Below are positions 3,692-63,528 of a DNA stretch of 64,000 nt, one piece after another. Source of the DNA: a virus. The notes beneath the pieces were generated by a model. The model had not been told where the DNA came from, did no database searches, and saw only the letters and a list, made by a program, of their open reading frames with translations. Position numbers and translations under genes: made by a program. The stretch covers positions 1-64,000 of IMG/VR virus record IMGVR_UViG_3300032240_001333; one strand, given 5' to 3'. Positions within the stretch are counted from its first letter, which is position 1, and each line of letters starts with the position of its first letter.

Positions 3692-4116
3692 ATAATCAAT
3701 TACATAAAGTAATTAGATTATCTAGGGCGAAAGATGAAGTCATTGCTTGGCGCTATTCAGATAAAAAAAGAGTCCTATATTCTTATGCAGATGTGCAAAA
3801 AAATATGGAGAACGCTTATACTATTACACAAGTTGGTGCAATATTGGGTAGGCATAAAGTTACTATTGAAGAATACATTCTTCAGGGTAAAATTAGTACA
3901 CCGCAAAAAGTTTACCCGATAAGTAACCCAGACAGTACTTGGTCTAAATTTATGTTTAGCGAATCTGATATATTAAAACTACATGAATATATATTGGAAG
4001 CTGGATATACAAAAAATATACCGTCCAAGGCAGAATTAAGGGCACTTCTCAAAAACAATATGATATTGTATACTAAGACCGAAACAGGGTTTGTACCAGT
4101 ATGGAAGGCGGAGTAA
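3637..4116 (+). CDS. HTH DNA-binding protein (MerR/excisionase-like)
   Basis: YTITQVGAILGRHKVTIEEYILQGKI helix-turn-helix. Confidence 0.7.
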   Translation: MVRKKRSGIRKKFLYFFLNNQLHKVIRLSRAKDEVIAWRYSDKKRVLYSYADVQKNMENAYTITQVGAILGRHKVTIEEYILQGKISTPQKVYPISNPDSTWSKFMFSESDILKLHEYILEAGYTKNIPSKAELRALLKNNMILYTKTETGFVPVWKAE

Positions 4117-4225
4117 TGTCTAATAGATTTGTTATATGCGATATATGTAACAAAGAAATAGAATTACGATGGGGAATATTTGGAAGCGATACTCTAAGGA
4201 GACATGTAAAGGCGGAGCATAAATA

Positions 4226-4429
4226 ATGGCGGATACAAAAGTAAAAGTAGATCTTTCATTTACTAGAAATCTTGGTAATTATGAAAGCATTAAAATAGGT
4301 ATTGGTATTGAGGATGATGTTCGTGCTGGTGAAAATGTAGATACCGCTACTGAACGTGTATATAAATTTGTTGAAGAAAAGTTAATTCAAAAAACACAAG
4401 AAATTGAAGAAGAGTTAAAACGTGGCTAA
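4226..4429 (+). CDS. Phage hypothetical protein
   Basis: ORF track; TRNLGNYES motif; AGGCGGA upstream. Confidence 0.65.
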   Translation: MADTKVKVDLSFTRNLGNYESIKIGIGIEDDVRAGENVDTATERVYKFVEEKLIQKTQEIEEELKRG

Positions 4430-4739: not shown

Positions 4740-5974
4740 ATACAGAAGCTACGTTAATATCAGCAGTATGCAAAAACAAGGATATCAGTACATTACTTGC
4801 AGACAATGTTGATGATTTATTTACTTCACATAGAGATATTTGGGAAGGTTTAAAATCCTACTATTATAAATTTAAGGCTGTCCCAGAAACTGGTGTACTA
4901 CAAGAAAAATTTAAAGACTTTGAACCTGATCTAAATGTAAAGGCAGAAACTGGATACTATCTAGACAAATTAAAGAATGAGTATTTATCTGCAAGATTAA
5001 AAAGCATTATTCTTCAAGGTGGATCTGCGTTAAAAGAAGATGCAGCATCTAGAGTTTTAGCAGACATGCAAAGCAAACTTGCTGGCCTTGCTAGATTTAC
5101 AAATAATGTTAGAGATTTAGATATTACAGATCTAGATGCAGCAGAAAGACACTTTGCATCCGTTAAAGATAGATCTGCAGCAATGGGTGGAAGTCCAGGA
5201 ATTAAAACTGGTTTTCAAGCAATTGATACTGCATATCCAACAGGCATGGCTCCAGGACATTTAATTGTTGCTATTGGTTGGCCAGGAAAAGGTAAGACAT
5301 GGTTTACATCATATCTTGCATGCAAAGCTTGGGAGCAAGGTTTCAAGCCAATGATTATATCGCTAGAAATGTCTCCAGAAAATATGCGTGATCGTATTTA
5401 TACAATGTTGGGATCTGGTTTATTTAAAGCCAGCGATTTGTCAAAGGGAGATATTAATATAGATGATTTTAAATCATGGGGACAGAAAAAGTTTGAAGGA
5501 AAGAATAGTTTTGTATTGGTATCAAATGAAGGAACAGCAGAAGTTACACCAGCTACTGTCCAAGGTAAAATTGATCAACACAAACCCGACCTTGTTATAT
5601 TGGATTATCATCAGTTGTTTAATGATAACAAACGCTCTAACTCAGAAGTAGAACGAAATAGAAATATTTCTCGTGAGTTTAAATTACTAGCAGTATCTAA
5701 TAATATTCCAATTATTGATATTACGGCTGCAACAGCAGATGATATTTCTGATCAAGAGAATCCACCAATGATGAGCCAAGTTGCTTGGTCAAAAGCAATT
5801 GAATACGATGCTGATATGGCTATGGCTATTCACAGATATCCAGGAACAAATCTAATTGAAGTGGTTTCACGAAAGAATCGTCATGGACATGAATTTGATT
5901 TCCATTTAGATTGGGACATCAATAGGGGTGTTATTAAAGAATTATATGATTATGTACCACCACAGACCAATTAA
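4736..5974 (+). CDS. dnaB: Replicative DNA helicase (DnaB-like, SF4)
   Basis: Walker A GWPGKGKT, SLEM, ILDY, IEYDAD, KNRHG. Confidence 0.92.
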   Translation: MNTEATLISAVCKNKDISTLLADNVDDLFTSHRDIWEGLKSYYYKFKAVPETGVLQEKFKDFEPDLNVKAETGYYLDKLKNEYLSARLKSIILQGGSALKEDAASRVLADMQSKLAGLARFTNNVRDLDITDLDAAERHFASVKDRSAAMGGSPGIKTGFQAIDTAYPTGMAPGHLIVAIGWPGKGKTWFTSYLACKAWEQGFKPMIISLEMSPENMRDRIYTMLGSGLFKASDLSKGDINIDDFKSWGQKKFEGKNSFVLVSNEGTAEVTPATVQGKIDQHKPDLVILDYHQLFNDNKRSNSEVERNRNISREFKLLAVSNNIPIIDITAATADDISDQENPPMMSQVAWSKAIEYDADMAMAIHRYPGTNLIEVVSRKNRHGHEFDFHLDWDINRGVIKELYDYVPPQTN

Positions 5975-6245
5975 AAGATTTCAAATAGATGTTGAATTTA
6001 AAGACGATTCAGATTTAATTAGATTAAGAAATCAGTATGAAAATATGTTAGTGCACCAAATGAGAGATAAGGGATACTCAAGAGTGCTTGACATAGACAC
6101 TGCATTTTCGGTAGAATTTACAGGTGAATCATGGAAGTTTTTAATGACTCTCCATGGAATACATACAGGAAGGCGGAAAGCATGGGAATCAGAGGGAATA
6201 ACACAAGGGAAGTTAGTTCCACGCAATATGCACCAAACCATATAA
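5928..6245 (+). CDS. Hypothetical protein between helicase and primase
   Basis: ORF track; true start uncertain. Confidence 0.55.
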   Translation: MLLKNYMIMYHHRPIKRFQIDVEFKDDSDLIRLRNQYENMLVHQMRDKGYSRVLDIDTAFSVEFTGESWKFLMTLHGIHTGRRKAWESEGITQGKLVPRNMHQTI

Positions 6246-7959: not shown

Positions 7960-8166
7960 ATGAGAACTTACGAAATACCAGATCCATTTGTTGAGTTTGT
8001 CCATAATAAAAATCTTAAGTTATCTGGTGCAATACATGATTACTTTGCAAAAGAATGGAGTTATAAATGCATTACCTGTCTAGAAGTAATGTATGCTCCA
8101 AGTAAAAAAACAATAACAAAAACTAGACTTTATCATACTAGAAATATATGTTTGGGCGGATATTAA
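7960..8166 (+). CDS. Small zinc-finger-like protein, leaderless
   Basis: CITC...H...C; TAGAAT just upstream of ATG. Confidence 0.55.
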   Translation: MRTYEIPDPFVEFVHNKNLKLSGAIHDYFAKEWSYKCITCLEVMYAPSKKTITKTRLYHTRNICLGGY

Positions 8167-28058: not shown

Positions 28059-28350
28059 TTTAGGTGTTGATAAAGACGATCTGGATTGGTGGCACCTTTC
28101 AGTATGTCGTGGCATGGATACTAATTTATTTTATGATAAATATGAAAATGATCCAAAGATTGCAAAAAATATAGATGAGGCATGTCTAGCGTGTCCAGTA
28201 ATATCTATGTGTTATAAAAATGGAGTTAGCAATAATGAATACGGAGTATGGGGCGGAGTTTATTTAAGTTCTGGCGCAATAGATAAAGCTAGAAATATTC
28301 ATAAAACACCAGACGTATGGAAAAAATTAAAGGCAAAGAATGTTCATTGA
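28039..28350 (+). CDS. whiB: WhiB-family Fe-S transcription factor
   Basis: C...CLAC PVISM C and GVWGG signature; likely start MSNIL. Confidence 0.88.
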   Translation: MSNILNDLGVDKDDLDWWHLSVCRGMDTNLFYDKYENDPKIAKNIDEACLACPVISMCYKNGVSNNEYGVWGGVYLSSGAIDKARNIHKTPDVWKKLKAKNVH

Positions 28351-29443: not shown

Positions 29444-30013
29444 ATGACTGCCGTAGTAGCCCTAATTCATGAAAATAAAGTCCTCTTAGGAGGAGATGCT
29501 GCTGCATCCGATGATAAAAGTGGTTTAATTTTTTCTAGAACAGATCCAAAAGTATTTAAAGTAGGACAATTTGGTATTGCATTTGTTGATAGTTTTAGAA
29601 TGGGACAAATTTTACAATACAACTGGATCCCACCAGTTTATAAGCCAAGTGCTGGATTTAAAAACTTAGATAAATTTATGAGAACTAAATTTGTAGAGTC
29701 TATCAAAGAAGCATTTAAAGAAAATGGATATGGAAACCAAGTTCCAGGATCAAGCGAAGATGGTGATGAAGGCGGAGTATTCATTATTGCAGTTCAAGGT
29801 GCAGGCAGAATTTTTACAATGGATTCAGATTTTCATATAGGTGAAGCAGATTTACAATATATGGCAGAAGGAGCAGGACAAGAAATAGCTTTAGGTTCAT
29901 TATTTTCTACCACATCTATTAAGACCCCTCGTAAACGTGTTAGAATGGCTCTAGAAGCCTCTGCCAAGTTCAACATGTCAGTCAGACCCCCATTTACAAT
30001 AATTGAAGTTTAA
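29444..30013 (+). CDS. Ntn-hydrolase protease (HslV/proteasome beta-like), leaderless
   Basis: Thr after the initiator Met, GGD, KVF lysine, AEGAG loop. Confidence 0.75.
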   Translation: MTAVVALIHENKVLLGGDAAASDDKSGLIFSRTDPKVFKVGQFGIAFVDSFRMGQILQYNWIPPVYKPSAGFKNLDKFMRTKFVESIKEAFKENGYGNQVPGSSEDGDEGGVFIIAVQGAGRIFTMDSDFHIGEADLQYMAEGAGQEIALGSLFSTTSIKTPRKRVRMALEASAKFNMSVRPPFTIIEV

Positions 30014-40787: not shown

Positions 40788-41057
40788 TTATATTATAGGT
40801 TCATGTTGTTCTATTACTTCGGCTAGATGACTGGATAACATTAGGGCTTCTGATGTATATCCTTCCGCCCATGCCGTTTGGAAATTACCCGCCTGTTGTT
40901 TAATAACTTCCTTTATCAGTTCCATAAGTCTATCTTGAGTATATAGCGGTAGGTTATTAACAATAATACTAGCGCAAATCATTGGATTAAACCAATGATT
41001 ATCTAATACTACTTGTAGTTGGTCTACGATTTTTTCTTCATCTGTTTTCTTTGCCAT
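40788..41057 (-). CDS. Early-region hypothetical protein
   Basis: GAAAGAGGCGGA directly upstream; TATAAT promoter near 41082. Confidence 0.65.
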   Translation of the reverse strand: MAKKTDEEKIVDQLQVVLDNHWFNPMICASIIVNNLPLYTQDRLMELIKEVIKQQAGNFQTAWAEGYTSEALMLSSHLAEVIEQHEPII

Positions 41058-41150
41058 GTCCGCCTCTTTCTAGTCTTTGGATTATATCAAAAAAGTTGGG
41101 AAAGGTCAATAGTGATATGCGACTATCAACCCCTCCCAATGTTAGATAGT

Positions 41151-42760: not shown

Positions 42761-42894
42761 AAATAAGAAACCCCCCAGCCGAGACTACTGGGGGATTAAG
42801 AGAGTGGCTGCTAGGACCTCAACGAAAGGAAAAGCCTGCTTTACTTAGCAACTAGATAAGTTGCACCACTCATATGAATAGGCACCCTGGGCCT
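42761..42894 (-). ncRNA. Candidate trans-acting antisense sRNA 1 (anti-AACGAAAGGAAAA)
   Basis: TGCTATAAT promoter (42901-42909), several stems, UUUUCCUUUCGUUG in a predicted loop, terminator CCCCCAG/CUGGGGG plus U-rich tail. Confidence 0.75.
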
Positions 42895-42911
42895 AATCAA
42901 ATTATAGCATA

Positions 42912-43316
42912 TTAGACGAGCAGTCTCTCCAATGCATACTTCTCACAGAATGATGTGAGATCCATGGTAAAGATTGCTTCATTCTTCATACCTAAAACTT
43001 TATTCTCTAAGTTGCGATGATCATCTTGCTCATGCAATGAGAACGTTTGGTCCTTCCAATTAATAACAGCGATCTTGTGCTCATTGTCACCAATTGAATT
43101 TACCTGCAGACCCCAGCCTGTTTCCATGTTCCATTGGTCGCCGATCAAATGACTAATAGCAATACGTGTTGCATATGATTCGTCATTCCATCGAGGACGT
43201 GCTGCAATAACAGCATCCGCCAATTTACCTAACATGTTATATCCAGCCCAGTGTCCGTATAAGCAGATTGTATCTCCTGCTCCATCAACGAATACGTAGT
43301 TTGCTCTATCTCCCAT
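42912..43316 (-). CDS. Early-region phage protein
   Basis: MGDRAN...LYGHWAG; AGGCGGA RBS. Confidence 0.7.
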   Translation of the reverse strand: MGDRANYVFVDGAGDTICLYGHWAGYNMLGKLADAVIAARPRWNDESYATRIAISHLIGDQWNMETGWGLQVNSIGDNEHKIAVINWKDQTFSLHEQDDHRNLENKVLGMKNEAIFTMDLTSFCEKYALERLLV

Positions 43317-43507
43317 TATATTTCCGCCTTTTCTAGTTGAGGTGTTTCTTCCGTTTTGTTTAATTCTATCATTTCATAGGCCCATTTGTCTAGAGCCTCT
43401 GAATTACTATTTCGGTGATGTCCGCAAAATGCCAGCTCACCTGATGTGCTACGGGCTAACCATTTAGCCTGAGCTGAGCATGAATCACATTTGATCCATT
43501 CGCTCAT
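43316..43507 (-). CDS. Small zinc-finger protein
   Basis: CDSC...FCGHH. Confidence 0.65.
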   Translation of the reverse strand: MSEWIKCDSCSAQAKWLARSTSGELAFCGHHRNSNSEALDKWAYEMIELNKTEETPQLEKAEI

Positions 43508-44328: not shown

Positions 44329-45086
44329 TAGTTTCCTTTCGTTGTAGTAGTGGTTAAGTATACATTATGGGTCTGACATTCCGCCATAGCATCTTCATCC
44401 TGCCAAGAGCCTTGATTACATTCTGAGCAGAATTCTCCGCATCCGTCTTCACAATAATCTATTGTGTTAAAAGATTGGCAGGCATAACATCTGTTTTCAT
44501 ATTCTAAGTTTTCATTAACTTCACCACGAACAATCTCGTATTCACCACCCCAACCAGTCTCTTCTTCAAATTCAAGGGTTAATAGAGAGTTTGGAACAAG
44601 ATTGCTAAGTTTAGTTAATATAGTAACGGCAGGTGACCAAGCAGTATTATATTTATAGATAACCCAGTTGTCTTCACCCTCTGATGTATATTCAAGTAAT
44701 TCAGTATCAGGATATTCATCTTTGTCTGCTACGGCAACATCCCATTTTGTTCCCCAGTTAGTTGTATTCCAGTTATACCAATCTTTCTGAGTTTTAGCAT
44801 GCTCCATTTCTTTATCAAACCAATCAGGTTGATTTGTAGAAATTCCAAGTCGTGCAGGTTGTTGAACATATTCTTGCATTGTAATACCATCTTGTAATGG
44901 AGAATGTATATTCCAAAATGCAAAGACAGGATTAGAGTAAGTAGATTCAGTTACTTCCATTTTATTAGTTTCCATGTTCCAACTATCGTGCCATACCATA
45001 AATGGCTCGTTAAGTTTATCTTTGATAAAATCTATCTCAGACTTTGGTCCTTGGATTGTTAATGTGTTATACACCCAGTTAGGCAT
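44328..45086 (-). CDS. YubB/DUF1281-like ferredoxin-fold protein
   Basis: MPNW, WYNWN..NWGTKWD, YNTAWSP; start corrected to MPNW behind the leader motif. Confidence 0.7.
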   Translation of the reverse strand: MPNWVYNTLTIQGPKSEIDFIKDKLNEPFMVWHDSWNMETNKMEVTESTYSNPVFAFWNIHSPLQDGITMQEYVQQPARLGISTNQPDWFDKEMEHAKTQKDWYNWNTTNWGTKWDVAVADKDEYPDTELLEYTSEGEDNWVIYKYNTAWSPAVTILTKLSNLVPNSLLTLEFEEETGWGGEYEIVRGEVNENLEYENRCYACQSFNTIDYCEDGCGEFCSECNQGSWQDEDAMAECQTHNVYLTTTTTKGN

Positions 45087-45210
45087 ATTATTCCTTTCGT
45101 TGATTAGCGCAATTGTATCAGAGTCGACTGACATTATCAAGGATTTCCAGGAATTTTATTGATGTTCTCATAAAAGCGAAAAAAGGCCCTTAGCTATTGG
45201 GGGCAGCTTG

Positions 45211-45284
45211 CGATCCCAACGGGACTTGAACCCGTAGCCTTTACCGTGACAGGGTAACGATCTAACCAATTGATCTATGGGACC
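45211..45284 (-). tRNA. tRNA-Asp(GTC)
   Basis: Acceptor GGTCCCA/TGGGATC, anticodon arm TTACC-CTGTCAC-GGTAA, T arm ACGGG-TTCAAGT-CCCGT. Confidence 0.92.
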
Positions 45285-45315
45285 TAGATGTGGGGCCCTT
45301 TCGGGCCCCATTTAT

Positions 45316-46323
45316 TTATACTAGTTGCAGATTATTTTGTACAACTTTTAACAAGCGATTTTTTTCTGCGTTAATTACAGGATTGAAACCACTTGCAGAT
45401 GCTAAAAGAGTTTCAGCATTTCCACGGCGATGCCAATCTAAACGCTCAGTTAAAGCGTTAAATGCTCCCCATGCATTACCAGCGATCATGTGATTAAATT
45501 CGCCAGTGTAGATATCATTAATGAGATCAACTTTCGTTTCCCATTTTTTAATTGCGCCCTTAGTATCTTTTGTAGGCTTAGGGTACGCAGCCAAAATAAT
45601 ATCGTTAAATTGTTGAGCGGTGATTTCTTTTTGAATCATCTGCTTAGCCATGATATCGAATTTATCCATGTATGAATTCGCAAGACCTAAAGCCTCACGA
45701 GCCACACGCACACGACCTTCAGCAGATTGTGTATGACGGATTTTGAAAGATTGCTTAACGCCATCTTTCTTTTTGATATTGCCCATCGCAAGATTTAGCG
45801 TGTTAGCGCATACAACACGAACGGGTGTTATAGATGCTTGAATAGCAATTGAGCCATCATGTGATGTATTAATAAGCAGATAAGTTTTAACAACATCTGC
45901 CACGCCACTAGGATCAAGAACGGTTTCACGCTCTAATGCTAATGAGCCGAATACAACACGACCGCCACGAATTGAGCCAGCAGTCTCCCAACGTCCACCG
46001 CCATCAAGAATATTATCGCCGAATGCGAATAATTCTTCATTTTGCAATGGTACATAACGCTCACCGACAATTCCTAAAACATCGGTTTGTGTTTTGTCCG
46101 TAGGATTAGTACGCACAACATATTGATAGTTTTTATCGCTTGTTAATGTAGATGGAATTTCTAATTCCTCTAAGCGAACATTCCAACCATTAAGGTTAGC
46201 GGTTTCTAGCATTTCGCTAGTTGTTTTTTCTTCTGTGAACACGGTACCTAAACCATGCCACGCAGGTTCACGAAATGATGCAAAAGAAGTTTTGCCATTT
46301 TGTGATTCTAGTTCATGAGCCAT
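45316..46323 (-). CDS. DUF932/DUF945-family phage/plasmid protein
   Basis: REPAWHGLG, ETAGSIRGGR, NTSHDGS, TPVRVVCANTL, RHT. Confidence 0.85.
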   Translation of the reverse strand: MAHELESQNGKTSFASFREPAWHGLGTVFTEEKTTSEMLETANLNGWNVRLEELEIPSTLTSDKNYQYVVRTNPTDKTQTDVLGIVGERYVPLQNEELFAFGDNILDGGGRWETAGSIRGGRVVFGSLALERETVLDPSGVADVVKTYLLINTSHDGSIAIQASITPVRVVCANTLNLAMGNIKKKDGVKQSFKIRHTQSAEGRVRVAREALGLANSYMDKFDIMAKQMIQKEITAQQFNDIILAAYPKPTKDTKGAIKKWETKVDLINDIYTGEFNHMIAGNAWGAFNALTERLDWHRRGNAETLLASASGFNPVINAEKNRLLKVVQNNLQLV

Positions 46324-46460
46324 TTATTTTCCTTTCGTTTAATGTAGCGTTATTCTAGCATACATGACTGACATTTGGCAATATCCTATCCGACACGCCA
46401 GGGATTTTAAAAGCTTGACTTAAAGCAGAAAATGCCCCCACAGTATCTGGGGGCTTTTAA

Positions 46461-46679
46461 TTAAGAAATGACTAACGATTTAAAATCGGTTGGAAAAAAC
46501 ATTGCCAGAATCTTTTTCTTTTCAACATTGTCATATACATATGCTTTGACATTGCCCTGGAACTTATTTAGATTTTTTCTAACAACTTTATTTAGCGCTT
46601 CACGATTTAATATATCATTAAAATGTAAAGTTAAATCATGAGCTTTGTTAGCATCATAGATTTCTACACGATACCGCAT
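46461..46679 (-). CDS. Early-region hypothetical protein
   Basis: AAAAGGAAA RBS; TAGACA-N18-TAAAAT promoter. Confidence 0.6.
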   Translation of the reverse strand: MRYRVEIYDANKAHDLTLHFNDILNREALNKVVRKNLNKFQGNVKAYVYDNVEKKKILAMFFPTDFKSLVIS

Positions 46680-46751
46680 TTGTTTCCTTTTGTAGTAGGG
46701 AGAACTATTTTAACATAGGGGGCTAGATTTTGTCTAGCCCCCATTTGTTTA

Positions 46752-47174
46752 TTATAGATATTGAGCGATAGCGTTGTAAGTAGAAGTTGAAACTACTTCC
46801 TCATCTGTCATTTTCAGAATACGGATAGCGTTTTCAATTTCATCTTTTGTAGCCTTGTAAGTATGAACATGGAAGGTTTCAAAATCACGCTCAGGTTGCT
46901 TAGGAAAATCCTTCTCGTCAATTTTTAAGTCAAAATCAACATTGAGTTGGTTATTCCATGAACGATAATTTGTGCGGACATTTTCCGCTTTTGAGATATT
47001 ATCAAGAGCAAACTTAACAATATCTTTATTCCACTTAGCCAAAGTCTTTTGATACTTTGCCTCGTTCTCGTCTTGTTTCTTATAGTTAGTTTCAATTTCT
47101 GCTAACTTAGTTTCTAAAGCCTTGATAACTTTAGGTGTAGCGATTTTAACGCTAATTGCTTTTTGTCTTGACAT
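46752..47174 (-). CDS. Early-region hypothetical protein
   Basis: Complete promoter plus leader cassette. Confidence 0.75.
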   Translation of the reverse strand: MSRQKAISVKIATPKVIKALETKLAEIETNYKKQDENEAKYQKTLAKWNKDIVKFALDNISKAENVRTNYRSWNNQLNVDFDLKIDEKDFPKQPERDFETFHVHTYKATKDEIENAIRILKMTDEEVVSTSTYNAIAQYL

Positions 47175-47241
47175 GTATTTCCTTTCGTTAGGTTGGGTTT
47201 ATTATAGCGGACACCACCGACAAGCGGTGTCCGCATATTAC

Positions 47242-47385
47242 TTAGTTTAGAACTACTGAAGTCCAGCGTTCTTTGCCATTTACATCTAGCAAGATACGAG
47301 CCACTCCGCTTGGGTGATTATCAACGGCTTTGATAATTCCAGTAATACCACTTGTAGTGGTTGTGTATAGTTGTCCGATTTCCAT
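47242..47385 (-). CDS. Early-region small protein (MEIGQLY...)
   Basis: Start corrected to the ATG following the leader motif. Confidence 0.65.
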   Translation of the reverse strand: MEIGQLYTTTTSGITGIIKAVDNHPSGVARILLDVNGKERWTSVVLN

Positions 47386-47436
47386 TTTTGTTTCCTTTCG
47401 TTTATGGGTTGTTATTATAGCACCTGCCACCGACAA

Positions 47437-47706
47437 TTAGTAATCGGTTTCAGGTAGCCACGCTTCTAGGTGGTGAGCCTCGATAATTGCTAAGGCAGGA
47501 GCCTTATCTCTGCCCCTATATGACACGCCTTGAGGCATATCTATCAGGCGATCATAGTCCTCATCATAGTACGCATCTATGGCATCAATACATGGTTGTA
47601 CCATTGATAGCGGAACGGGTGGATAGTGATTACCTTGTAAGTGATAACCAATAGCCATTTCTAAGTCTAAGTTTTCTGCTAAGTCTATTGCTGTATTTAA
47701 TCCCAT
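47437..47706 (-). CDS. Early-region phage protein
   Basis: HLQGNHYPPVP motif; AGGAG RBS. Confidence 0.7.
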   Translation of the reverse strand: MGLNTAIDLAENLDLEMAIGYHLQGNHYPPVPLSMVQPCIDAIDAYYDEDYDRLIDMPQGVSYRGRDKAPALAIIEAHHLEAWLPETDY

Positions 47707-47982
47707 TTATTCATTCTCCTCTAATATAGTTTCGGATAAGTTTTCTATTTCGTTAATACTATCCGTCATCTCTTTCATCTCGGTTTCGGATAGTAATACT
47801 TTAGTAGTTAGGTCTGCTGTTTTACTAGCAAGACTAGCAGAATAAAGATAAATTAACTTTGCGAAAGTTTTATCATCTATTTCATTTCTGCGTTCCATTA
47901 AGTCCCCTGCTAAGGCTGTAATATCATCATTAAATACTGCTTCCTTAGTTGCTTCTGATATTGCTATGGCTGTTGCTAACAT
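47707..47982 (-). CDS. Early-region hypothetical protein
   Basis: Promoter plus leader cassette. Confidence 0.7.
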   Translation of the reverse strand: MLATAIAISEATKEAVFNDDITALAGDLMERRNEIDDKTFAKLIYLYSASLASKTADLTTKVLLSETEMKEMTDSINEIENLSETILEENE

Positions 47983-48034
47983 ATTTTCCTTTCGTTGGTG
48001 ATGGGCTGATTATACACCAGCCCACCGACATTTA

Positions 48035-48295
48035 CTAAGCCAGTACTATAAGAGCCTGCGTAGCAAACTCATTAGCAATATCTAACTTTGCTTGGATTTC
48101 ATCTCTAGTCATATCGGCAGGGTTACCGACAAACTCAGTAATTGCGCCTTGATTGTAAGTTGCAAACCTACCAGCAGGCAAGTTTTCTACTTTTGGATAA
48201 AACTCACCTTTTGGATCTAATAAAGAGTTAAACTTAACTCCATTAACTTCGAATGGATAAACCACCCAATTAGTTGTGTCTAGCATTGTTTTCAT
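48035..48295 (-). CDS. Early-region hypothetical protein
   Basis: Promoter plus leader cassette. Confidence 0.7.
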   Translation of the reverse strand: MKTMLDTTNWVVYPFEVNGVKFNSLLDPKGEFYPKVENLPAGRFATYNQGAITEFVGNPADMTRDEIQAKLDIANEFATQALIVLA

Positions 48296-48565
48296 TTTAT
48301 TTCCTTTCGTTTAAGTAGTGGAATTGTAGCAGATCTAACTGACATTTTGTTGCGACACGCCGTCAGCTCGTAAAAATTTTCAGGGTGTTTTATATCACAT
48401 TCTTAACGACACGCCCGACCCCGCAGTATTTGCGGGCAAAGCCCCCTTTTGTCAAGGGGGACACGCTGGTTATTTAATAACACTCTCCACATAATGGATA
48501 GTAATATTCGCCATCATCAGTAATAAACTGAGTGGTATCTTGATTGCAAGATGAACATTTATTCA

Positions 48566-48775
48566 TTATAAATCCCCCATTTCTGCGTCAGCCATGCGTG
48601 TATTCATATGATCTGCATCAATATCACGCCAGCCAAAGTAAGCCATTTCTGACATATCATAACATTCAGGGCAGACATAATCGTCGCCAAAGATTTCATA
48701 TTCCTCAATAGTTTCGAAAGTCTGAGTAGCACCACAGATTTCGTACATTAAGCAAGCAACTGTTAGATTTTCCAT
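48566..48775 (-). CDS. Early-region acidic zinc-ribbon protein
   Basis: Cys pairs; promoter plus leader cassette. Confidence 0.65.
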   Translation of the reverse strand: MENLTVACLMYEICGATQTFETIEEYEIFGDDYVCPECYDMSEMAYFGWRDIDADHMNTRMADAEMGDL

Positions 48776-49025
48776 TTTAGTTCACCTTTCGTTAAGTAAT
48801 GGAATACTAACACATCACACTGACATTTCCAAATCGACACGCCGAAATTTTCAGGGCATTTTTATCATGTGTCTTAAATCACAAAACGCCCCCACAGCTT
48901 TTGCGGGCTTTTTCTAATCTGTCAAGTCGACACGCCGTTTATGTTTTAATTTTCTTGTGTATTTTTTTTTATTGCGAACAGGTTGGGCCGCATTGCTGCG
49001 GCGTAATTCCTGAATGCGTTTTACT

Positions 49026-49217
49026 TTATTTAGAAGAATATTTTGGCACATGATAACCGCTTGCTTCATGAAATTTAACAACATCAAAACGCTCATTATC
49101 TTTTGCAAACATTTCTGCAAAATCGTGAACAGTTTTAGAAAAAACAGCGGGATGAATTTTATCGCTGATATATTTTAAAATTTCAGCGGTTGCGATATAG
49201 TCTTTACGGGTCATCAT
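49026..49217 (-). CDS. Early-region small protein
   Basis: MTRKDY...A....DN.RFD..KF pattern. Confidence 0.65.
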   Translation of the reverse strand: MMTRKDYIATAEILKYISDKIHPAVFSKTVHDFAEMFAKDNERFDVVKFHEASGYHVPKYSSK

Positions 49218-49413
49218 TTTGCGGACACCAATCCAATCAAGTTAAAATTTTTAGTATACATTTTACCATTAGGCATAGTTAAATTATATCTTGCGTTTTC
49301 TACGGCAAAGCCATGATCTTTACATCTAGCAAAAGCCTCAAACGCTTGAAGAGCATCAGAAAATTCATGGGTAAATTCTAATTTCCCATCATAGTAAGTA
49401 AATAATTTATACA

Positions 49414-49545
49414 TTAGATCACCCACTCATCTAAAACACAATCACAACTTTCAACATCATAATTTTTTTCATCGCCCCAAAATACAAATCCTGCGCCACC
49501 GCATTCTTCACATTCAATTGCGATTATTTCTTTTATATTTCCCAT
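49414..49545 (-). CDS. Early-region 43-aa zinc-ribbon protein (not in ORF track)
   Basis: CEECGG.G...CDC; promoter plus leader cassette. Confidence 0.6.
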   Translation of the reverse strand: MGNIKEIIAIECEECGGAGFVFWGDEKNYDVESCDCVLDEWVI

Positions 49546-49598
49546 TTAGTTTTCCTTTCGTAGTTTGTTAATAGAATTATAGCGGATACCGCTGACAC

Positions 49599-49814
49599 CT
49601 AGTAGGTGTCAGGGTAAACATCTTCGGGTTTTCCAATCCCGATTACACGATATTTATTACGGATCATGCCCGTATCAATTTCGATTAAATAAGCATCAAT
49701 ATATCTGCCAAAAAAAGCAGAATGTTTTTCAGCAGAAACAATTTTTCCGCTGATAGTATCGGATGAATAAGTCCTACCGACTAGCAAGTCGGTGTGAGAG
49801 TAGATATTAGCCAT
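49599..49814 (-). CDS. Early-region hypothetical protein
   Basis: Promoter plus leader cassette. Confidence 0.65.
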   Translation of the reverse strand: MANIYSHTDLLVGRTYSSDTISGKIVSAEKHSAFFGRYIDAYLIEIDTGMIRNKYRVIGIGKPEDVYPDTY

Positions 49815-49865
49815 AGTTAGTTTTCCTTTCGTTTATGGTGTAATTTTAACATAACCCACTGACAA

Positions 49866-50015
49866 TCAGTGGGTTGGCGTTTCCGCCATGATTAGTTTTA
49901 ATAAACCAATTCGTTGCGATTTGGTTAAATTTAATTTCGCAACAGTTTCGGATTTTATTCCGCCATTATTATATTCGAACAAAAGTTCGTTATAGATTTC
50001 GCTAAATTCTTTCAT
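49866..50015 (-). CDS. Early-region 49-aa protein (not in ORF track)
   Basis: MKEFSEIYNELLFEY...; promoter plus leader cassette. Confidence 0.6.
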   Translation of the reverse strand: MKEFSEIYNELLFEYNNGGIKSETVAKLNLTKSQRIGLLKLIMAETPTH

Positions 50016-50122
50016 TTAGTTTTCCTTTCGTTTAATAGTTTTATTCTAACACCTACCACTGACATTTTGCCTATTACTGACCAGTATTTGAGACAGTATT
50101 CGTGTGATCATAATCACACGAG

Positions 50123-50197
50123 TTATCCACGACACGCCCGAAGTTTTCCACAGATTTTCAGGGGTTTTCCACATCTGTGCATAAACCCTGTGGATAA
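50123..50197. promoter_or_regulatory. Cluster of five DnaA boxes
   Basis: TTATCCACG 50123, TTTTCCACA 50144 and 50165, TGTGCATAA 50176, TGTGGATAA 50189. Confidence 0.75.
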
Positions 50198-50969
50198 CGC
50201 CCACAAAAAGCTGCGGGCCAATGTCGCCATTGTCAAGGCGACACGCCGTCTATTTCTTGTGAGTTTCCTCACATACGCATTTGGTATATGCGCCAGCGTT
50301 TAACCTGCCACATTTAGGGCAGGTATAGAAACCAGCAGGATTAGTCATTTAACCCACCGCTCTTTACATCGTAGTAGATAGCGTAGACTAGGGCAGATAC
50401 TACACCTAGCAACGCTAATTGGATGGCGGTGGTGATTAGTCTATTTAGTGTCATTACTTACGACCTCTCCATATTTTAATTCCAGCAATTACTACAACAG
50501 ATACGATAATTAGTTTCCAATCTAGTGCGACATAGAACCAATCGCTATCTACGCAGAAACCATATGAGTTTAATTCAATAGTCATTTATTACTCCGTCCA
50601 GTCTAAGGTTAATTCTTGCTCTGCTAATTCATCAAGGCTAATTATATCGGTATCAAAATCGCTAACGATATCTTCATCGCCCTCTTGCTTGGCGATAGCC
50701 TCTCTCTCGTCCCAATGGCGGTATGCGTCTGCGATATCCGCTTGGATAGTGTCCCATTTAGTCATCATATTAGAAACCCCAGCAATCTGAGCAGATAACT
50801 ACATCGCTCTCATCGTAGAATATAGAGGACATCTCTACATCGCACACCTTACAATTTAAGGTGATTAGTGTGTCGTTCATTTTCTTACCTTCTTTCGTTT
50901 TTGTTATGGTGAAACCTTATCATACCCCACCGACAAAGCGCAAGCCTTGCCGATGTGATGTTGCTCACA

Positions 50970-51194
50970 TTAGTAGGCACCATAGGTGCCATCCTTTAGT
51001 GATTGGATAGTAGTCAATACATGGTCAATAGCCATCATGACTATCTCTTTATCAGAGCGGTCTTGATAAGCCCAATGATCCTTATAGTAGACATATGCTT
51101 GCTCATATGTCCAGCAATAAGTATCGTGATAATACTTAAGCGTAGGAGATAGCGTTTCATACGCCTCATTTATTTCTTTTATCATAGTTATCAT
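50970..51194 (-). CDS. First gene of the leftward early block, hypothetical
   Basis: TCAACGAAAGGA leader; long structured 5'UTR. Confidence 0.65.
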   Translation of the reverse strand: MITMIKEINEAYETLSPTLKYYHDTYCWTYEQAYVYYKDHWAYQDRSDKEIVMMAIDHVLTTIQSLKDGTYGAY

Positions 51195-51221
51195 ATTTAT
51201 ATCCTTTCGTTGATATATATT

Positions 51222-56486: not shown

Positions 56487-57812
56487 TTATTGTGAAATAA
56501 ATGTTCCGCTAATATTAAATGTTGTTGATGTAGTCATATTAGCTGGTTTTTGTTTGGTAAATGATTCATATGTATTAGGGGTATTAGCTCCGTTAGAGAC
56601 ACTATAAATTAATCCAATAGAATTTGACCCAGCTGTTACTTTTCCACCAATATCATATATTGTTCCACCAATTGTACACTGTCCAAAAAGTAATGAATTA
56701 TAAGCAGCAGTAAATGGAAGAGTTAAAAAGTATTGAACTCCATTTTGACCAAAATTAGTTACTGTTGCTAGGTTAACATCTATATGCACAAGAACCATTT
56801 TTCCAGTTGCAAGATATCTTGCAGATGTTGGTGTTCCTGAGTATGCAAGATTTGTTGATGAAAGTGTTGATACATATGTTGTTACCGTTGGTGTAATTGA
56901 AGATAAATCTGGTTTATTAAGAATTTGAGCTTTACCAGATACTGCATTCCAATCAGAGTTTACTTGTGGAATAGCAGCAGTTGATTGAGTTGTATTATCT
57001 CCAAATGTCAGCGTTTTCCCAGAAGCCAATACCGTATTTCTATTTAATACTAAATTTGCAGAAGAGGAGGTAAGTCCAATTTGAATATCAGTAGATCCTA
57101 AAGTAGATTCAATTGTATTATTAACAAATTTAAGTTGACCCACTTGTAATTGATTAGCGCCATTAATTAAAAGTATTCCATTGTTTACAGATATACTAGC
57201 ATTTGTTAATAAAGATTGATCAACAATATTTATTGTATTTGGTCCAATATAAATATCCGCCCATTTTTTTGTTAAAGTTCCTAGAGTATATGTATTTGTT
57301 GTTGTTGGAACAATGTTGCTTGCTACATTTAAAAAGTCTAAAGGATTACCATCGGCACCAGTATCACCTTTGTCACCCTTTGGACCAATGTCACCTTGTG
57401 CACCAGTTGCTCCTTGAATACCTTGAATACCTTGTATGCCTTGTATGCCCTGTAAACCTGTATCACCTTTATCGCCTTTAATACCTTGTATGCCTTGAAT
57501 ACCAGCATCGCCCTTTGCACCAGTTGCACCAGTATCACCTTTTGGTCCAGTTAAACCAGTATCACCTGTATCACCTTTATCGCCTTTAATACCTTGAATA
57601 CCTTGTGGTCCAACAATATCTCCTGCATCTACCCAACCTTCTAATGTTGAATAAACCATTAAAGATCCGTCTGATTGTAATAACCAACAATCTCCTGGAG
57701 TACCTGCAGATGCACCTGCTCCTGCATTAAATGCAGCAAGATTTGGATAATTTCCTTTTAATGTAAATGATTGACCAGATGGTCCACGTTCTGAGGTTAT
57801 GATAAATGGCAT
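56487..57812 (-). CDS. Collagen-like (Gly-X-Y) fibre protein
   Basis: Uninterrupted GXY run ([15 protein letters not shown]...) followed by a beta-rich C-terminal domain. Confidence 0.85.
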
Positions 57813-57813
57813 A

Positions 57814-58074
57814 TTATCTTTCCAATATTAAAATAGAAGTTGTTCCAGATCCAATAGCATAAAGTTTGTCATAGGGATAGAGATCGGCACTAAAAATTTG
57901 TCCAGGTGCAAGTTTAATTCCATAAGATAATGTACTTACATTTTCATCGCCAATATAAAGCACATTTGTTGGATCTGTATTTTGAATAGATATTGTATTA
58001 TGTGAATCTACAGGATCTGTTAACGTCAATAATGCTGGAGTCCCAGTTAAAGTTAAATTTCTAGTTCTTAGCAT
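57814..58074 (-). CDS. Small beta-rich protein, possibly virion
   Basis: ISIQN...LYIG...YGIKL.PG; upstream of the fibre gene. Confidence 0.55.
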
Positions 58075-58139
58075 AAAATCCCCTTAGTTGCCAATTTGCA
58101 ACAATTCCATTATACACCCATATAAACAATAACTAAAAT

Positions 58140-58220
58140 AACAGAAAACCCAATCGGAGGCGGATCCAATTGGGTTCTGGCATCTAATGATGCAATGTAA
58201 GGAGCCAAAGCTCGACCTAC
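58140..58220 (-). ncRNA. Candidate sRNA 2 (anti-AGGCGGA loop)
   Basis: TTGACT-N17-TATACT promoter (58227-58255), three hairpins, last one AACCCAAUUGGA-UCCGCC-UCCGAUUGGGUU plus U tract; no ORF. Confidence 0.7.
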
Positions 58221-58270
58221 AAAATAAGTATATAATTCTTAATTTTATAAGTCAATAGAATTAGTAAATA

Positions 58271-59074
58271 TTACCAACCATTTTTTTCCATCATAATTTT
58301 TGTTTTTTCTTCTATTATATCTGCAAATTGTGGATTAATTCTTAGCGGAGAATTCCAATCATTTAATTGTTGTTCGCTAGGATTTTCATATTTTCCAATT
58401 TGTTCTTCCCATTCAGGAGTTTTATAATTATAAAATGTTCCTGGGTTATCCTCTGCTAATAAAGCAAAGCATGAAAATGCAAATCTTGTACCACTTTTTG
58501 TTTTTCTAGTTCCATGATCATAAGGGATACATGCTCCATGTAATATAATATCTCCTGGTTCTGGCTGAACTTCAAGACAAGGCTGAGCAAGTTTTTTCTC
58601 ATCAATTCTCATATCGCCAGTTTTTTCAGTACCATCTGGATTAATATTTGGATAATATAAAGCACCGCCAGTAAAGTCACCCAAATAGGCAATCATTCCA
58701 TATTCAAGTTCACAACATGTAGACCATTGATCTATTTCAAGTAATAATTCACATCTTCCTTTTCCAGGACTGTCAGCATGAACAAACATACCTTCATCAT
58801 GTGGTTGAGAAACCATTAAACTTCTTACTGGATGAATAACAATTTCTGGATGTATTAATTCTGACATAAATTTCCATAAAGGGAATGTGCTAGAAAAACC
58901 TGGAGTCATTTTGTCCTTATACCAGTCCCTAACACTCCAGTCATTATCTGCCCCACCTCTTTCAAAGGTTGCAAGATCTTTATTAATCGATTCAATTATT
59001 TCTTTAGGAATAATATTTTTAAATATATAAATTCTATTTGCTATTTTTTTACATCTAGGATCATCGTAAAACAT
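58271..59074 (-). CDS. 2OG-Fe(II) oxygenase
   Basis: HAD...YLGDFTGGALYYP...HGT...R. Confidence 0.85.
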   Translation of the reverse strand: MFYDDPRCKKIANRIYIFKNIIPKEIIESINKDLATFERGGADNDWSVRDWYKDKMTPGFSSTFPLWKFMSELIHPEIVIHPVRSLMVSQPHDEGMFVHADSPGKGRCELLLEIDQWSTCCELEYGMIAYLGDFTGGALYYPNINPDGTEKTGDMRIDEKKLAQPCLEVQPEPGDIILHGACIPYDHGTRKTKSGTRFAFSCFALLAEDNPGTFYNYKTPEWEEQIGKYENPSEQQLNDWNSPLRINPQFADIIEEKTKIMMEKNGW

Positions 59075-59134
59075 ATATTATTTCCTCCTTTATTTTATGT
59101 TAATATTATACCACTTATGTGATACAATAACACT

Positions 59135-59473: not shown

Positions 59474-59669
59474 TAATTTCTCCTTCTGGTGTAAATGATG
59501 GAACTGGTCCTAATAAATATCCTTGATTATGATATTCTACCATTTTAGAAGTCTTTTCTTCCCCAGCAACTTTATTAGAAATTAAAGTTAATATATCATA
59601 TATTCTATGAAGCATAATATATGTAACCATTGGAATATTTTCTTCTAAATTTTGATTTTCATCTGACAT
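59466..59669 (-). CDS. Hypothetical protein
   Basis: AGGCGGT upstream. Confidence 0.6.
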   Translation of the reverse strand: MSDENQNLEENIPMVTYIMLHRIYDILTLISNKVAGEEKTSKMVEYHNQGYLLGPVPSFTPEGEINE

Positions 59670-59874
59670 TTGCGTCTACCGCCTTTTTCATATCGTTATA
59701 AGCTTTTTCTCCTATAAACTTTTTATAAGAGCAAGAAAGACAATATAAATAAACATTGTCTTCTAAATCTAAATTAGAAAGAAGAAGACCTTGATCCATT
59801 GGACATTCCATTTTAGGAACCAGGCCTTCTTCTGATAAAGCTATATATTTAGATACGTATTGTATCTGTTTCAA
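59659..59874 (-). CDS. Zinc-ribbon protein
   Basis: CPMD...CLSC; AAGGAG RBS. Confidence 0.6.
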   Translation of the reverse strand: MKQIQYVSKYIALSEEGLVPKMECPMDQGLLLSNLDLEDNVYLYCLSCSYKKFIGEKAYNDMKKAVDANVR

Positions 59875-60441: not shown

Positions 60442-60519
60442 TCCTCCTTTAGAGATAACGAACTATAATAATAACATTGGCGGGTAATGACTGTCAAGCC
60501 AGTCAACCAGAAGGATTTA

Positions 60520-61593: not shown

Positions 61594-63528
61594 ATGTCAA
61601 CATCTATTGAAAACCCATATGAAAATTTTATTGCGTTATCTCGTTATGCAAGATGGATACCAGAAGAGAATCGCAGAGAAACATGGAGTGAGACAGTAGA
61701 TCGTTATTTTTCTTTTATGCTTGATCACTTATTTAAAGAGCATGCATATGAGCCATCATCAAAATTAATTGCAGAATTAAAGCAAGCAGTATTAGATCGA
61801 AATGTAATGCCATCAATGAGATCAGTAATGACCGCTGGTGCAGCACTAGAAAGAGATCATGTTGCTGGATATAATTGTTCATTCGTACCAGTAGATAATC
61901 CAAGATCATTTGATGAGACTATGTATATTCTTATGTGTGGAACTGGTGTTGGATTTTCTGTTGAATATAAATATGTTAATAAACTTCCTGCCATTCCAGA
62001 ATCATTTGAAAAGTCATCAACAATAATTAACGTTGAAGATTCTAAGCAAGGATGGGCAAAAGCATATCGTGAACTATTGGCACTCCTTTGGACGGGACAA
62101 ATTCCATCAATTGATGTAAGCAAACTTCGTCCTGCAGGTGCAAGACTTAAAACAATGGGTGGTCGTTCATCTGGACCACAACCATTAATTAATCTTTTTG
62201 ATTTTACAATTGCAAAATTTAAAAATGCAGCAGGTCGTCAACTTAAACCAATTGAGGCACATGACATTATGTGCAAGATTGGTGAAATTGTAGTAGTTGG
62301 TGGAGTTCGCAGATCTGCAATGATTTCTTTGTCAAACATTAATGATATTGAAATGGCTCAAGCAAAATCTGGTAATTGGTGGGAAAATAATTCACAACGT
62401 GCATTGTCTAATAACTCAGTGGCCTATTCACGCAAACCAGAAATGGAACAATTTATAGCAGAATGGAAATCTTTATATGATTCAAAATCAGGAGAACGTG
62501 GAATTTACAATGTTGCAGCAGCACAAAAACAAGCAGCTAAATATGGAAGACGGGATCCTGAAATTCATTATGGAACCAACCCATGTTCAGAGATTATTCT
62601 ACGTCCTTATCAGTTTTGTAATCTTTCAGAAGTCGTATTACGTGAAAAAGATAAAATTGAAGATGTTGCAAATAAAGTCCGTCTTGCCACTATTTTAGGA
62701 ACATGGCAATCAACATTAACAGATTTTAAATATCTTCGTAAAATTTGGAAAGATAATACAGAAGAAGAACGTTTATTAGGAGTTTCTTTAACTGGTCAAT
62801 TTGGACATAAATTCTTTTCAGGTAAAGAAGATATTAATAAATTGGAACAAGTATTAATTGAACTTCGTGAGTCTGCAAGAAAAACAAATGCAGCAGAGGC
62901 TAAAAAAATTGGTATTCAAGAATCAGCAGCAATTACATGTGTTAAGCCTTCTGGAACCGTATCTCAATTAGTTGGAGTTTCATCTGGAATGCACCCATGG
63001 CACTCTGAACACTATATTCGTACAGTTCGTGGGGATAAAAAAGATCCTATTTCTACATTCTTAAAAGAAGTAGGAATTCCAGTAGAAGATGATGTAATGA
63101 AACCAAACGATACATATGTATTTTCATTTCCAGTAAAAGCACCAGAAGGTGCTATTGTTAGAAATGATCTTACTGCAATTGATCATTTAAATACATGGTT
63201 AATTTATCAACGTGCATGGTGTGAGCATAAGCCATCAATTACAGTTTCTGTAAAAGAAGATGAGTGGATGGAAGTTGGAGCATGGGTATACAAGCATTTT
63301 GATGAGGTATCTGGAATTTCATTCCTACCACATTCAGATCACACATATAAGCAAGCACCTTATCAAGAAGTTTCCAAAGAAGAATATCTAGATCTTTTAG
63401 GTAAAATGCCTAAAGAAATTAGATGGGCAGATCTTTCATTTTATGAAACAGAAGATGGAACATCTGGAACTCAAACACTTGCATGTACTTCTGATGGAAA
63501 TTGTGAAATTGTAGATATTTCAGCATAG
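61594..63528 (+). CDS. nrdJ: Class II (B12-dependent) ribonucleotide reductase
   Basis: YNC, GGVRRSA, TNPCSEI, CNL, TCVKPSGT, C-terminal ACTSDGNCE. Confidence 0.92.
   Translation: MSTSIENPYENFIALSRYARWIPEENRRETWSETVDRYFSFMLDHLFKEHAYEPSSKLIAELKQAVLDRNVMPSMRSVMTAGAALERDHVAGYNCSFVPVDNPRSFDETMYILMCGTGVGFSVEYKYVNKLPAIPESFEKSSTIINVEDSKQGWAKAYRELLALLWTGQIPSIDVSKLRPAGARLKTMGGRSSGPQPLINLFDFTIAKFKNAAGRQLKPIEAHDIMCKIGEIVVVGGVRRSAMISLSNINDIEMAQAKSGNWWENNSQRALSNNSVAYSRKPEMEQFIAEWKSLYDSKSGERGIYNVAAAQKQAAKYGRRDPEIHYGTNPCSEIILRPYQFCNLSEVVLREKDKIEDVANKVRLATILGTWQSTLTDFKYLRKIWKDNTEEERLLGVSLTGQFGHKFFSGKEDINKLEQVLIELRESARKTNAAEAKKIGIQESAAITCVKPSGTVSQLVGVSSGMHPWHSEHYIRTVRGDKKDPISTFLKEVGIPVEDDVMKPNDTYVFSFPVKAPEGAIVRNDLTAIDHLNTWLIYQRAWCEHKPSITVSVKEDEWMEVGAWVYKHFDEVSGISFLPHSDHTYKQAPYQEVSKEEYLDLLGKMPKEIRWADLSFYETEDGTSGTQTLACTSDGNCEIVDISA

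Follow-up and report, generated by a model that had tools for sequence, protein, structure and literature searches.

The actinobacterial 6C sRNA represses panD and dnaB through C-rich loops that pair with G-rich ribosome-binding sites (RBSs), and it does so without a chaperone (PMC6486639). By analogy, this RNA is the closest experimentally established precedent for the phage element described here. In Staphylococcus, sRNAs of the RNAIII/RsaE type carry UCCC loops, including one in the terminator hairpin of RNAIII, which block initiation at the Shine-Dalgarno (SD) site of several mRNAs. In phage T4, the RegA protein turns off the translation of many early and replication mRNAs by attaching to their initiation regions. 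Small RNAs encoded by phages themselves have been reviewed and fall into two kinds, one cis-antisense to a single gene, the other dependent on Hfq and acting largely on host genes (PMC12197685). P22 sar, lambda OOP and aQ belong to the first kind, each directed at a single gene, and VpdS and PreS to the second.

The element that we compare with these systems lies in a single phage contig of 81,264 bp (33% GC), whose first 64 kb are the stretch analysed here (the window). The genome encodes a DNA polymerase III alpha subunit (Pol III alpha), a DnaG-type primase, a collagen-like fibre protein, four tRNAs, and a WhiB protein; the WhiB-family gene (28087-28260, plus strand) scores 41.9 bits, above the Pfam cut-off, and supports a probable actinobacterial host. 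An earlier note, made from the letters of the window, had described a promoter that drives an ORF-less RNA of about 80 nt with three hairpins, and our analysis bears this out, each feature being recovered in place on the minus strand. The unit is situated between the stop of a gene for a 267-aa protein (58271-59074) and the start of a gene for an 86-aa protein (58074), both on the same strand as the sRNA. Its promoter is composed of a -35 hexamer TTGACT (58250..58255, minus strand) and a -10 hexamer TATACT (58227..58232, minus) separated by a 17-nt spacer, from which a transcript of ~80 nt (58142..58221, minus) is predicted, with ends placed by the promoter position and the terminator. The fold of this RNA comprises hairpin 1 (58196..58221, minus; GUAGG-UC-GAGC-UUUG-GCUC-CUUAC), which contains a conserved GGUYGAG...CUCC core and shows covariation in its outer stem; a variable hairpin 2 (58180..58193, minus; GCAUC-AUUA-GAUGC), which is retained as a hairpin with changed sequence in relatives and is absent from L035, L040, and L052; and hairpin 3 (58178-58145, minus; 58146..58177 when counted as 13 bp), a terminator stem of 13-14 bp with the U-rich tail UUUUCUGUUAUUUU (58135..58148, minus). 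Hairpin 3 presents the hexaloop UCCGCC (58159..58164, minus), closed by the pair A58165-U58158, loop and closing pair both being invariant, and the reading of the loop plus the next base as UCCGCCU is confirmed by the fold and the coordinates. A 91-nt stretch folds into the three hairpins at -35.7 kcal/mol (z = -5.65), a value that none of 200 shuffles equals, and hairpin 3 has the make-up of an intrinsic terminator (14 pairs, 5 of them GC, a loop of 6, and a U-rich tail), with 0.1 such sites expected in shuffles. The unit thus has what generally characterizes a trans-encoded sRNA, namely its own promoter, no conserved ORF, a Rho-independent terminator, and a conserved single-stranded seed complementary to near-RBS sites in several mRNAs.

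The RNA is not peculiar to this contig. About 170 distinct homologous loci were found in IMG/VR, where an exact 19-mer from the hairpin is present in 68 contigs. Two of the searches were independent of hairpin 3: following the neighbouring 267-aa protein (down to 41% amino acid identity) led to the sRNA in 65 of 79 loci, always on the strand of the protein gene, and the hairpin-1 motif yielded 86 RNA homologues among 101 unique matches, the other 15 lying in coding-like sequence without the sRNA hairpin and being taken as chance. Exactly one copy occurs in each of 17 out of 20 further large relatives, and the three without a copy (G017, G020, and G023) are genomes only 59-74% complete. An upstream promoter of the form TTGAC(T/A)-N17 or N19-TAnnnT precedes 113 of the 170 unique loci, and among 12 of the others that were inspected, most show TTGACT-N17-GATACT or GACAAT. 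The predicted RNAs are ~60 to 98 nt long. They share no conserved ORF: in 52 homologues, the size of the longest open frame varies from 3 to 37 codons. In an Rfam scan, no family reaches its gathering score at the sRNA locus, and only tRNAs do so in the sequence scanned; a blastn search of 57800-59100 against deposited phages returned no match. The locus has the architecture of a stand-alone phage gene and represents a new, very well conserved family missing from Rfam. The best Rfam match, ctRNA_pGA1 of a Corynebacterium plasmid (RF00236), resembles the phage RNA in that a small hairpin precedes the terminator hairpin, which is GC-rich and has a C-rich loop, and it reaches 30.9 bits against a gathering score of 45. 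Membership was rejected for this sub-threshold score, which reflects a generic hairpin-terminator match; moreover, the strand opposite the phage RNA carries no gene leader, so the RNA is not antisense to a replication-initiator leader. The hairpin is also found in two MAG contigs labelled Candidatus Saccharibacteria and Bacteroidia (L515 and L516), which we did not accept as identifying a host, these being probably phage contigs binned by mistake. Most homologues (L080-L147 and L294-L390) have an extra C-rich loop, AUCCCAC, in hairpin 1, at the place of UUUG in the copy of the window, and this loop may address a second target word. In G006 (~62120-62190, L407), hairpins 1 and 2 are absent and the UCCGCC hairpin comes almost directly after a stop codon; this minimal element may be a 3'UTR-derived form.

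The element lies 16 nt past the stop codon at 58271 of the 58271-59074 gene, and in G006 the hairpin directly follows a stop codon; both would also be expected if the element did no more than terminate the upstream 267-aa gene as an intrinsic terminator, with a chance promoter match and no separate RNA. We regard this as extremely improbable, given that nearly every one of the 170 homologous loci retains the promoter, that in most relatives the unit stands upstream, not downstream, of the 267-aa gene, and that the invariance of the loop is no property of terminators. A further alternative is that the element works mainly in cis, as a terminator, an attenuator, or a put/Q-type leader at which an antitermination factor would allow read-through into downstream late genes, with no function in trans. 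The arrangement resembles the lambda pR'-tR' 6S unit, in which a strong promoter yields a transcript that terminates after a short distance, and the sRNA usually heads an operon of late or structural genes (for a collagen-like fibre and oxygenase-like proteins). Against such read-through, a separate extended -10 promoter follows the terminator, here and in all relatives inspected. For the 86-aa gene of the window, a -10 sequence TATAAT of this kind can be read at 58109..58114 (minus strand), and in relatives the extended -10 usually ends exactly 6 nt before the next ATG, as for a leaderless start. The downstream neighbour moreover differs among genomes, and in L080, L132, and L147 the sRNA ends tail-to-tail against a convergent tRNA cluster, which leaves nothing to read into; a plain terminator takes its place in a related lineage that lacks the sRNA. 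A cis-acting role of this kind is therefore very unlikely, and the transcript is not just the 5'UTR of the downstream gene, as its own conserved promoter, the separate downstream promoter, and the varied contexts indicate. A -10 (often extended, TGnTAnAAT or GGTATAAT) that ends exactly 6 nt before an ATG, with no SD site, is found at many genes of this phage, with starts at 7960, 8148, 17833, 22128, 25366, 29444, 30028, 30440, 33770, 37151 (minus strand), 37185, 55638 (minus), 55822, and 56457 (minus), and also in relatives (L088-L140). No -35 box was noted at these genes, whose mRNAs are apparently leaderless.

The comparison of hairpin 3 across homologues sets an invariant loop against a stem that is free to change. 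In an alignment of 52 diverse homologues, 11 of the 13 stem pairs have changed on both sides and 98.1% of cells remain paired, a value reached by none of 500 shuffles and approached by no slid register, and frequent G-U pairs in the stem fit an RNA of the minus strand only. Some homologues have unrelated stems altogether (CCCUGAAGAA in G006; GCCAUACGUAA in G010 and G025; CCCCCUGGA in G012, G014, and G015; CCCAUUCCGA in L296), and these, like every other homologue seen, have the identical UCCGCC loop and closing A-U pair. Neither whole genomes nor the loci reached through the neighbouring protein or the hairpin-1 motif yielded a variant of the loop. This is the opposite of a conserved stem with a drifting loop, the pattern that would have spoken against a function of the loop. 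The syntenic spot in the sRNA-less lineage is occupied by an ordinary terminator with an unrelated loop, which shows that termination does not need UCCGCC. Mimicry of the anti-SD sequence, suggested by the resemblance of the apex (UUGGAUC..CCUCC) to the 3' tail of 16S rRNA, was rejected, the CCUCC flank not being conserved: the 3' flank of the apex reads ...CCUUGG in L296 and ...CCUU in L324, G006, and G010, and the constant part is UCCGCC plus the closing pair. Invariance of the loop across very divergent phages also fits a conserved host target, and it is possible, if on the whole rather unlikely, that the sRNA is real but that its loop recognises a host RNA (e.g. the RBS of a host mRNA) or an RNA-binding protein, in which case the atypical RBS word of these phages would be a weak SD dialect whose complementarity to the loop is coincidental or incidental.

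This word, AGGCGGA, which is complementary to the loop plus the next base, occurs 14 times in the genome where ~2 copies would be expected from base composition, and all 13 copies outside the sRNA locus are on the sense strand of the local genes. Three copies lie within 22 nt upstream of starts with strict start calls and five with lenient calls, at a box-to-start spacing of 1 to 9 nt, and this proximity to starts is the top value among 105 composition-matched permutations of the word. About half of the copies are gene-internal, mostly in Gly-Gly or Ala codons. AGGTGGA, on the other hand, has 8 copies in the genome and none at starts. The word is present at each of the sites where the earlier note had placed it, and the enrichment at starts, for which that note had advised a check, was found here as well as in five other sRNA-bearing genomes. 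When 30 composition-matched permutations are ordered by their proximity to starts, GGCGGA and AGGCGG take ranks 1 and 2 in every one of these six genomes, with a spacing mode of 6 nt and the consensus AAGGCGGA. Conserved boxes precede the orthologues in at least eight gene families, namely those of the 36-aa (4116), 67-aa (4226), dnaB, Pol III alpha (8166), 41057, 43316, 644-aa, and primase proteins. The dnaB box is present in relatives and absent from this genome. Pfam and PHROG were searched for functions of the target genes, and the matches were all of unknown function.

Several of these boxes can be followed individually. The one at 4106..4112 (plus strand) lies 3 nt before the ATG at 4116 of a 36-aa CxxC ORF and is kept before the orthologues in G007, G009, G011, and G012 but lost in G002 and G003, the two genomes without the sRNA. 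The next (4210..4216, plus) stands 9 nt before the ATG at 4226 of a 67-aa protein (phrog_5189) in a non-coding intergenic spacer; it is kept in 5 of the 6 sRNA-bearing genomes, and both sRNA-less genomes have GGCTGA. A target that the earlier note had not listed is the gene of Pol III alpha, where GGCGGA (8155..8160, plus) precedes the ATG at 8166 by 5 nt and GGCGG is present in all six sRNA-bearing genomes and changed in both sRNA-less ones. This gene has two in-frame ATGs 18 nt apart (8148 and 8166), the first of the leaderless type (CATACT-N6-ATG) and the second after GGCGGA, and the pair is kept in G009, G011, and G012. On the minus strand, the box at 41059..41065 is 1 nt from the ATG at 41057 of an 89-aa protein, where the leader that follows an extended -10 is very short, and this family has the box in 6 of 6 sRNA-bearing genomes. 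Tandem double boxes, AGGCGGAGGCGGA-t-ATG and AGGCGGAAGGCGGA-cga-ATG, are seen for the 41057 family in G009 (29574-29948) and G011 (93223-93594). The box at 43323..43329 (minus) is 6 nt before the ATG at 43316 of a 134-aa protein (phrog_31860), and GGCGG is kept there in 34 of 47 unique orthologous contexts via a GCG Ala codon that makes up 4.3% of Ala codons in this genome. Some sRNA-bearing genomes have no box at an orthologue, e.g. G007 at the 43316 and 4226 families.

The primase, which the earlier note had singled out as a target, is a mixed case. Its box is indeed present (6171..6177, plus strand), 4 nt before the ATG at 6182, but it is confined to the closest relatives (83-87% identity) and falls inside an overlapping gene (5928-6245, plus). 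The box there consists of the rare Arg codons AGG (8.5%) and CGG (1.5%), at which other relatives have AAG-AAG. The 105-aa ORF at 5928-6245 is a real conserved gene (phrog_17515) that overlaps the primase start at 6182 by 64 nt in another frame. Since an upstream in-frame ATG at 6131 is not conserved in relatives, 6182 is likely to be the primase start. The AGGCGGT variant before the ATG at 59669 (59678..59684, minus), a weak site, does not hold as a member of the class, being not conserved and reading AAAGAAAGAGTTGG in the closest orthologues. A GGCGGG variant (60479..60484, plus), 2 nt before the ATG at 60487, is a further candidate that could pair with the loop via G-U.

The boxes are well supported by the comparative data as RBS elements, and selection at the nucleotide level is indicated by the non-coding spacer at 4226, the rare codons at 43316 and the primase, and the tandem boxes of G009 and G011. 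What bears on their relation to the sRNA is the lineage of G002 and G003, the only one confirmed to lack it, sister genomes with ~80-85% nucleotide identity, neither of which has the UCCGCC hairpin. Both are complete, G002 having direct terminal repeats (100% complete) and G003 being circularly complete with ends that overlap within dnaE. A diverged sRNA was sought in the two genomes through hairpins with a CCGCC loop and the hairpin-1 motif, and none was found. All that G003 has is a stem GGAGGCGG/CCGCCUCC before dnaE. A hairpin at 113337-113362 of this genome, GUGGAGGCGG-UAUUGA-CCGCCUCCAC, just upstream of dnaE, holds both the box and the complementary sequence, paired with each other. DnaB and DnaE of G002 and G003 share 81-85% identity with those of this phage, and those of the sRNA-bearing genomes 77-84%. 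For the eight families, GGCGG stands upstream of starts in 37 of 48 cases in the six sRNA-bearing genomes versus 3 of 16 in G002 and G003 (Fisher p = 5e-5, a value that ignores kinship and compares with one sRNA-less lineage only). The changes in G002 and G003 are point substitutions within the box (GGCTGA, AGCAGA, GGTGGA, GGTGGT, and AGCGGA), and the ratio of GGCGG to GGTGG at starts falls from 38:17 in sRNA-bearing to 7:14 in sRNA-less genomes (p = 0.008). As the loss of boxes is seen in one lineage, this is a single phylogenetic contrast.

These data also bear on the reading in which the loop has a host target and the boxes are merely an SD dialect. In its favour, G003 keeps four start-proximal GGCGGA boxes, in the early block, despite lacking the sRNA, which indicates that the boxes do not strictly need the sRNA and function without it, and the boxes lie in a GAAAGG-like purine context that would act as an SD site on its own. 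A plain SD dialect is, however, difficult to reconcile with the conservation of the C that breaks the SD match, even in intergenic spacers and through rare codons, when one mutation would give a perfect GGAGG, nor does it explain why AGGTGGA is unused at starts in sRNA-bearing genomes and why orthologous boxes decay in the sRNA-less lineage. Coincidence is improbable as well, for a hexaloop that never varies would have to match by chance, base for base, the atypical RBS word that stands out most.

The complementarity between loop and box is a perfect 7 nt. In nearest-neighbour calculations, the six AGGCGGA/GGCGGA boxes form duplexes with the apex at -13.3 to -15.5 kcal/mol and the two variants at -11.3 and -13.0 kcal/mol, compared with -7.6 to -9.3 kcal/mol for canonical AGGAGGA sites. 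Energies of full-length duplexes were set aside, as they ignore intramolecular structure. Several points count against the proposed pairing and control: it is sterically demanding for all bases of a 6-nt hairpin loop to pair, the distance from box to start varies, about half of the copies are gene-internal, some sRNA-bearing genomes have no box at an orthologue, G003 has boxes but no sRNA, and among RNA sequencing runs none was found to contain this DNA. Taking all of this together, we favour, with a probability of roughly 55%, a trans-acting sRNA whose C-rich loop occludes a private SD variant at replication and some early genes. According to this model, a host-type (-35/-10) promoter would give rise to the RNA of ~80 nt, ending at its own intrinsic terminator, whose hairpin would display UCCGCC for base pairing with (A)AGGCGGA boxes in vivo. 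A defined set of phage mRNAs would carry the boxes, at the SD position or within the first codons; here this set would comprise the replication module (4116, 4226, primase, and Pol III alpha) and the early genes 41057 and 43316. As a one-mismatch variant of GGAGG, the box would recruit ribosomes weakly, its central C weakening the pairing with CCUCC of the ribosome. Pairing with the sRNA would then occlude the RBS of this class and leave genes with a canonical AGGAGG unaffected, an effect that is probably repression rather than activation. A box that is weak for the ribosome but perfect for the sRNA would make the class addressable apart from the canonical AGGAGG genes. The interpretation put forward in the earlier note is thus upheld in part: the gene and its loop are solid, as are the boxes and the match between loop and box, and control by the sRNA is what we infer from them.

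The earlier note had further seen in this locus the second of two loop/leader pairs of a modular system. A first candidate sRNA (42761-42909, minus strand) carries the sole minus-strand copy of UUCCUUUCGUU (42831-42821), and its complement AACGAAAGGAA is found in 11 leaders of minus-strand early genes (44333-51211) versus 1.3 expected, so that another complementary sRNA/leader pair does exist at the level of sequence. The modular claim rests on this first candidate, whose support is its sequence complementarity. The wider idea is that a private SD dialect (GGAGG to GGCGG) serves as an address label, by which one 6-nt loop could switch a class of genes off or on, and that together with the 42761-42909 sRNA acting on AACGAAAGGAA leaders, at least two RNA master regulators would run much of the temporal programme post-transcriptionally; we put this forward as tentative, and somewhat doubtful in its full extent.

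With respect to the described systems, the phage RNA is like the 6C sRNA (B11, RF01066) in being a small sRNA of actinobacterial type that would act without a chaperone, with C-rich loops for the RBSs of several mRNAs that include that of the replicative helicase (the phage box precedes dnaB in relatives), the pairing being read here from complementarity and conservation. It differs in being encoded by a phage and not by the chromosome, in having a fixed loop word, UCCGCC, that contains a G in place of a run of at least six C, in using the loop of its terminator as the seed, and in that its putative targets carry one defined 7-mer box, not generic G-runs. 6C RNAs have two loops with runs of about six C, whereas the phage loops read UCCGCC and, in hairpin 1, UUUG (AUCCCAC in relatives), and the covariance model RF01066 gives no match at E <= 10 at this locus or in a relative with two C-rich loops. 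The RNAIII/RsaE-type sRNAs are comparable in their C-rich apical loops and in pairing with SD regions, but they are unrelated RNAs of an unrelated phylum and target the canonical SD, which the phage loop mismatches, its match being a non-canonical variant. T4 RegA offers a parallel as one phage factor for many early and replication mRNAs, with the difference that RegA is a protein and the factor proposed here a base-pairing RNA. With P22 sar, lambda OOP, the PAK_P4 asRNAs, VpdS, and PreS, the element shares being a phage-encoded small RNA of a kind that regulates translation or stability of phage or host mRNAs (PMC12197685). In contrast to the cis-antisense RNAs and to the Hfq-dependent ones that act largely on host genes, it is encoded in trans and would reach a regulon of several phage genes via a word of 6-7 nt. 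We infer that what is new here is a C-rich-loop, RBS-targeting sRNA that is encoded by a phage and matched to a dedicated RBS word.

Whatever its mechanism, the sRNA family, with its ~170 loci, is useful as a marker for this phage group, an abundant and uncultured group of freshwater actinobacterial phages. The proposed design is compact and directly testable, as a loop of 6 nt would read a box of 7 nt that departs from the canonical site at one base. Should the pairing prove real, viruses would share the mechanism by which the C-rich loops of the mycobacterial 6C sRNA act without a chaperone, and the RNA would be, as far as we found, the first phage-encoded trans-acting sRNA that governs the multi-gene regulon of the phage itself via a dedicated RBS variant.
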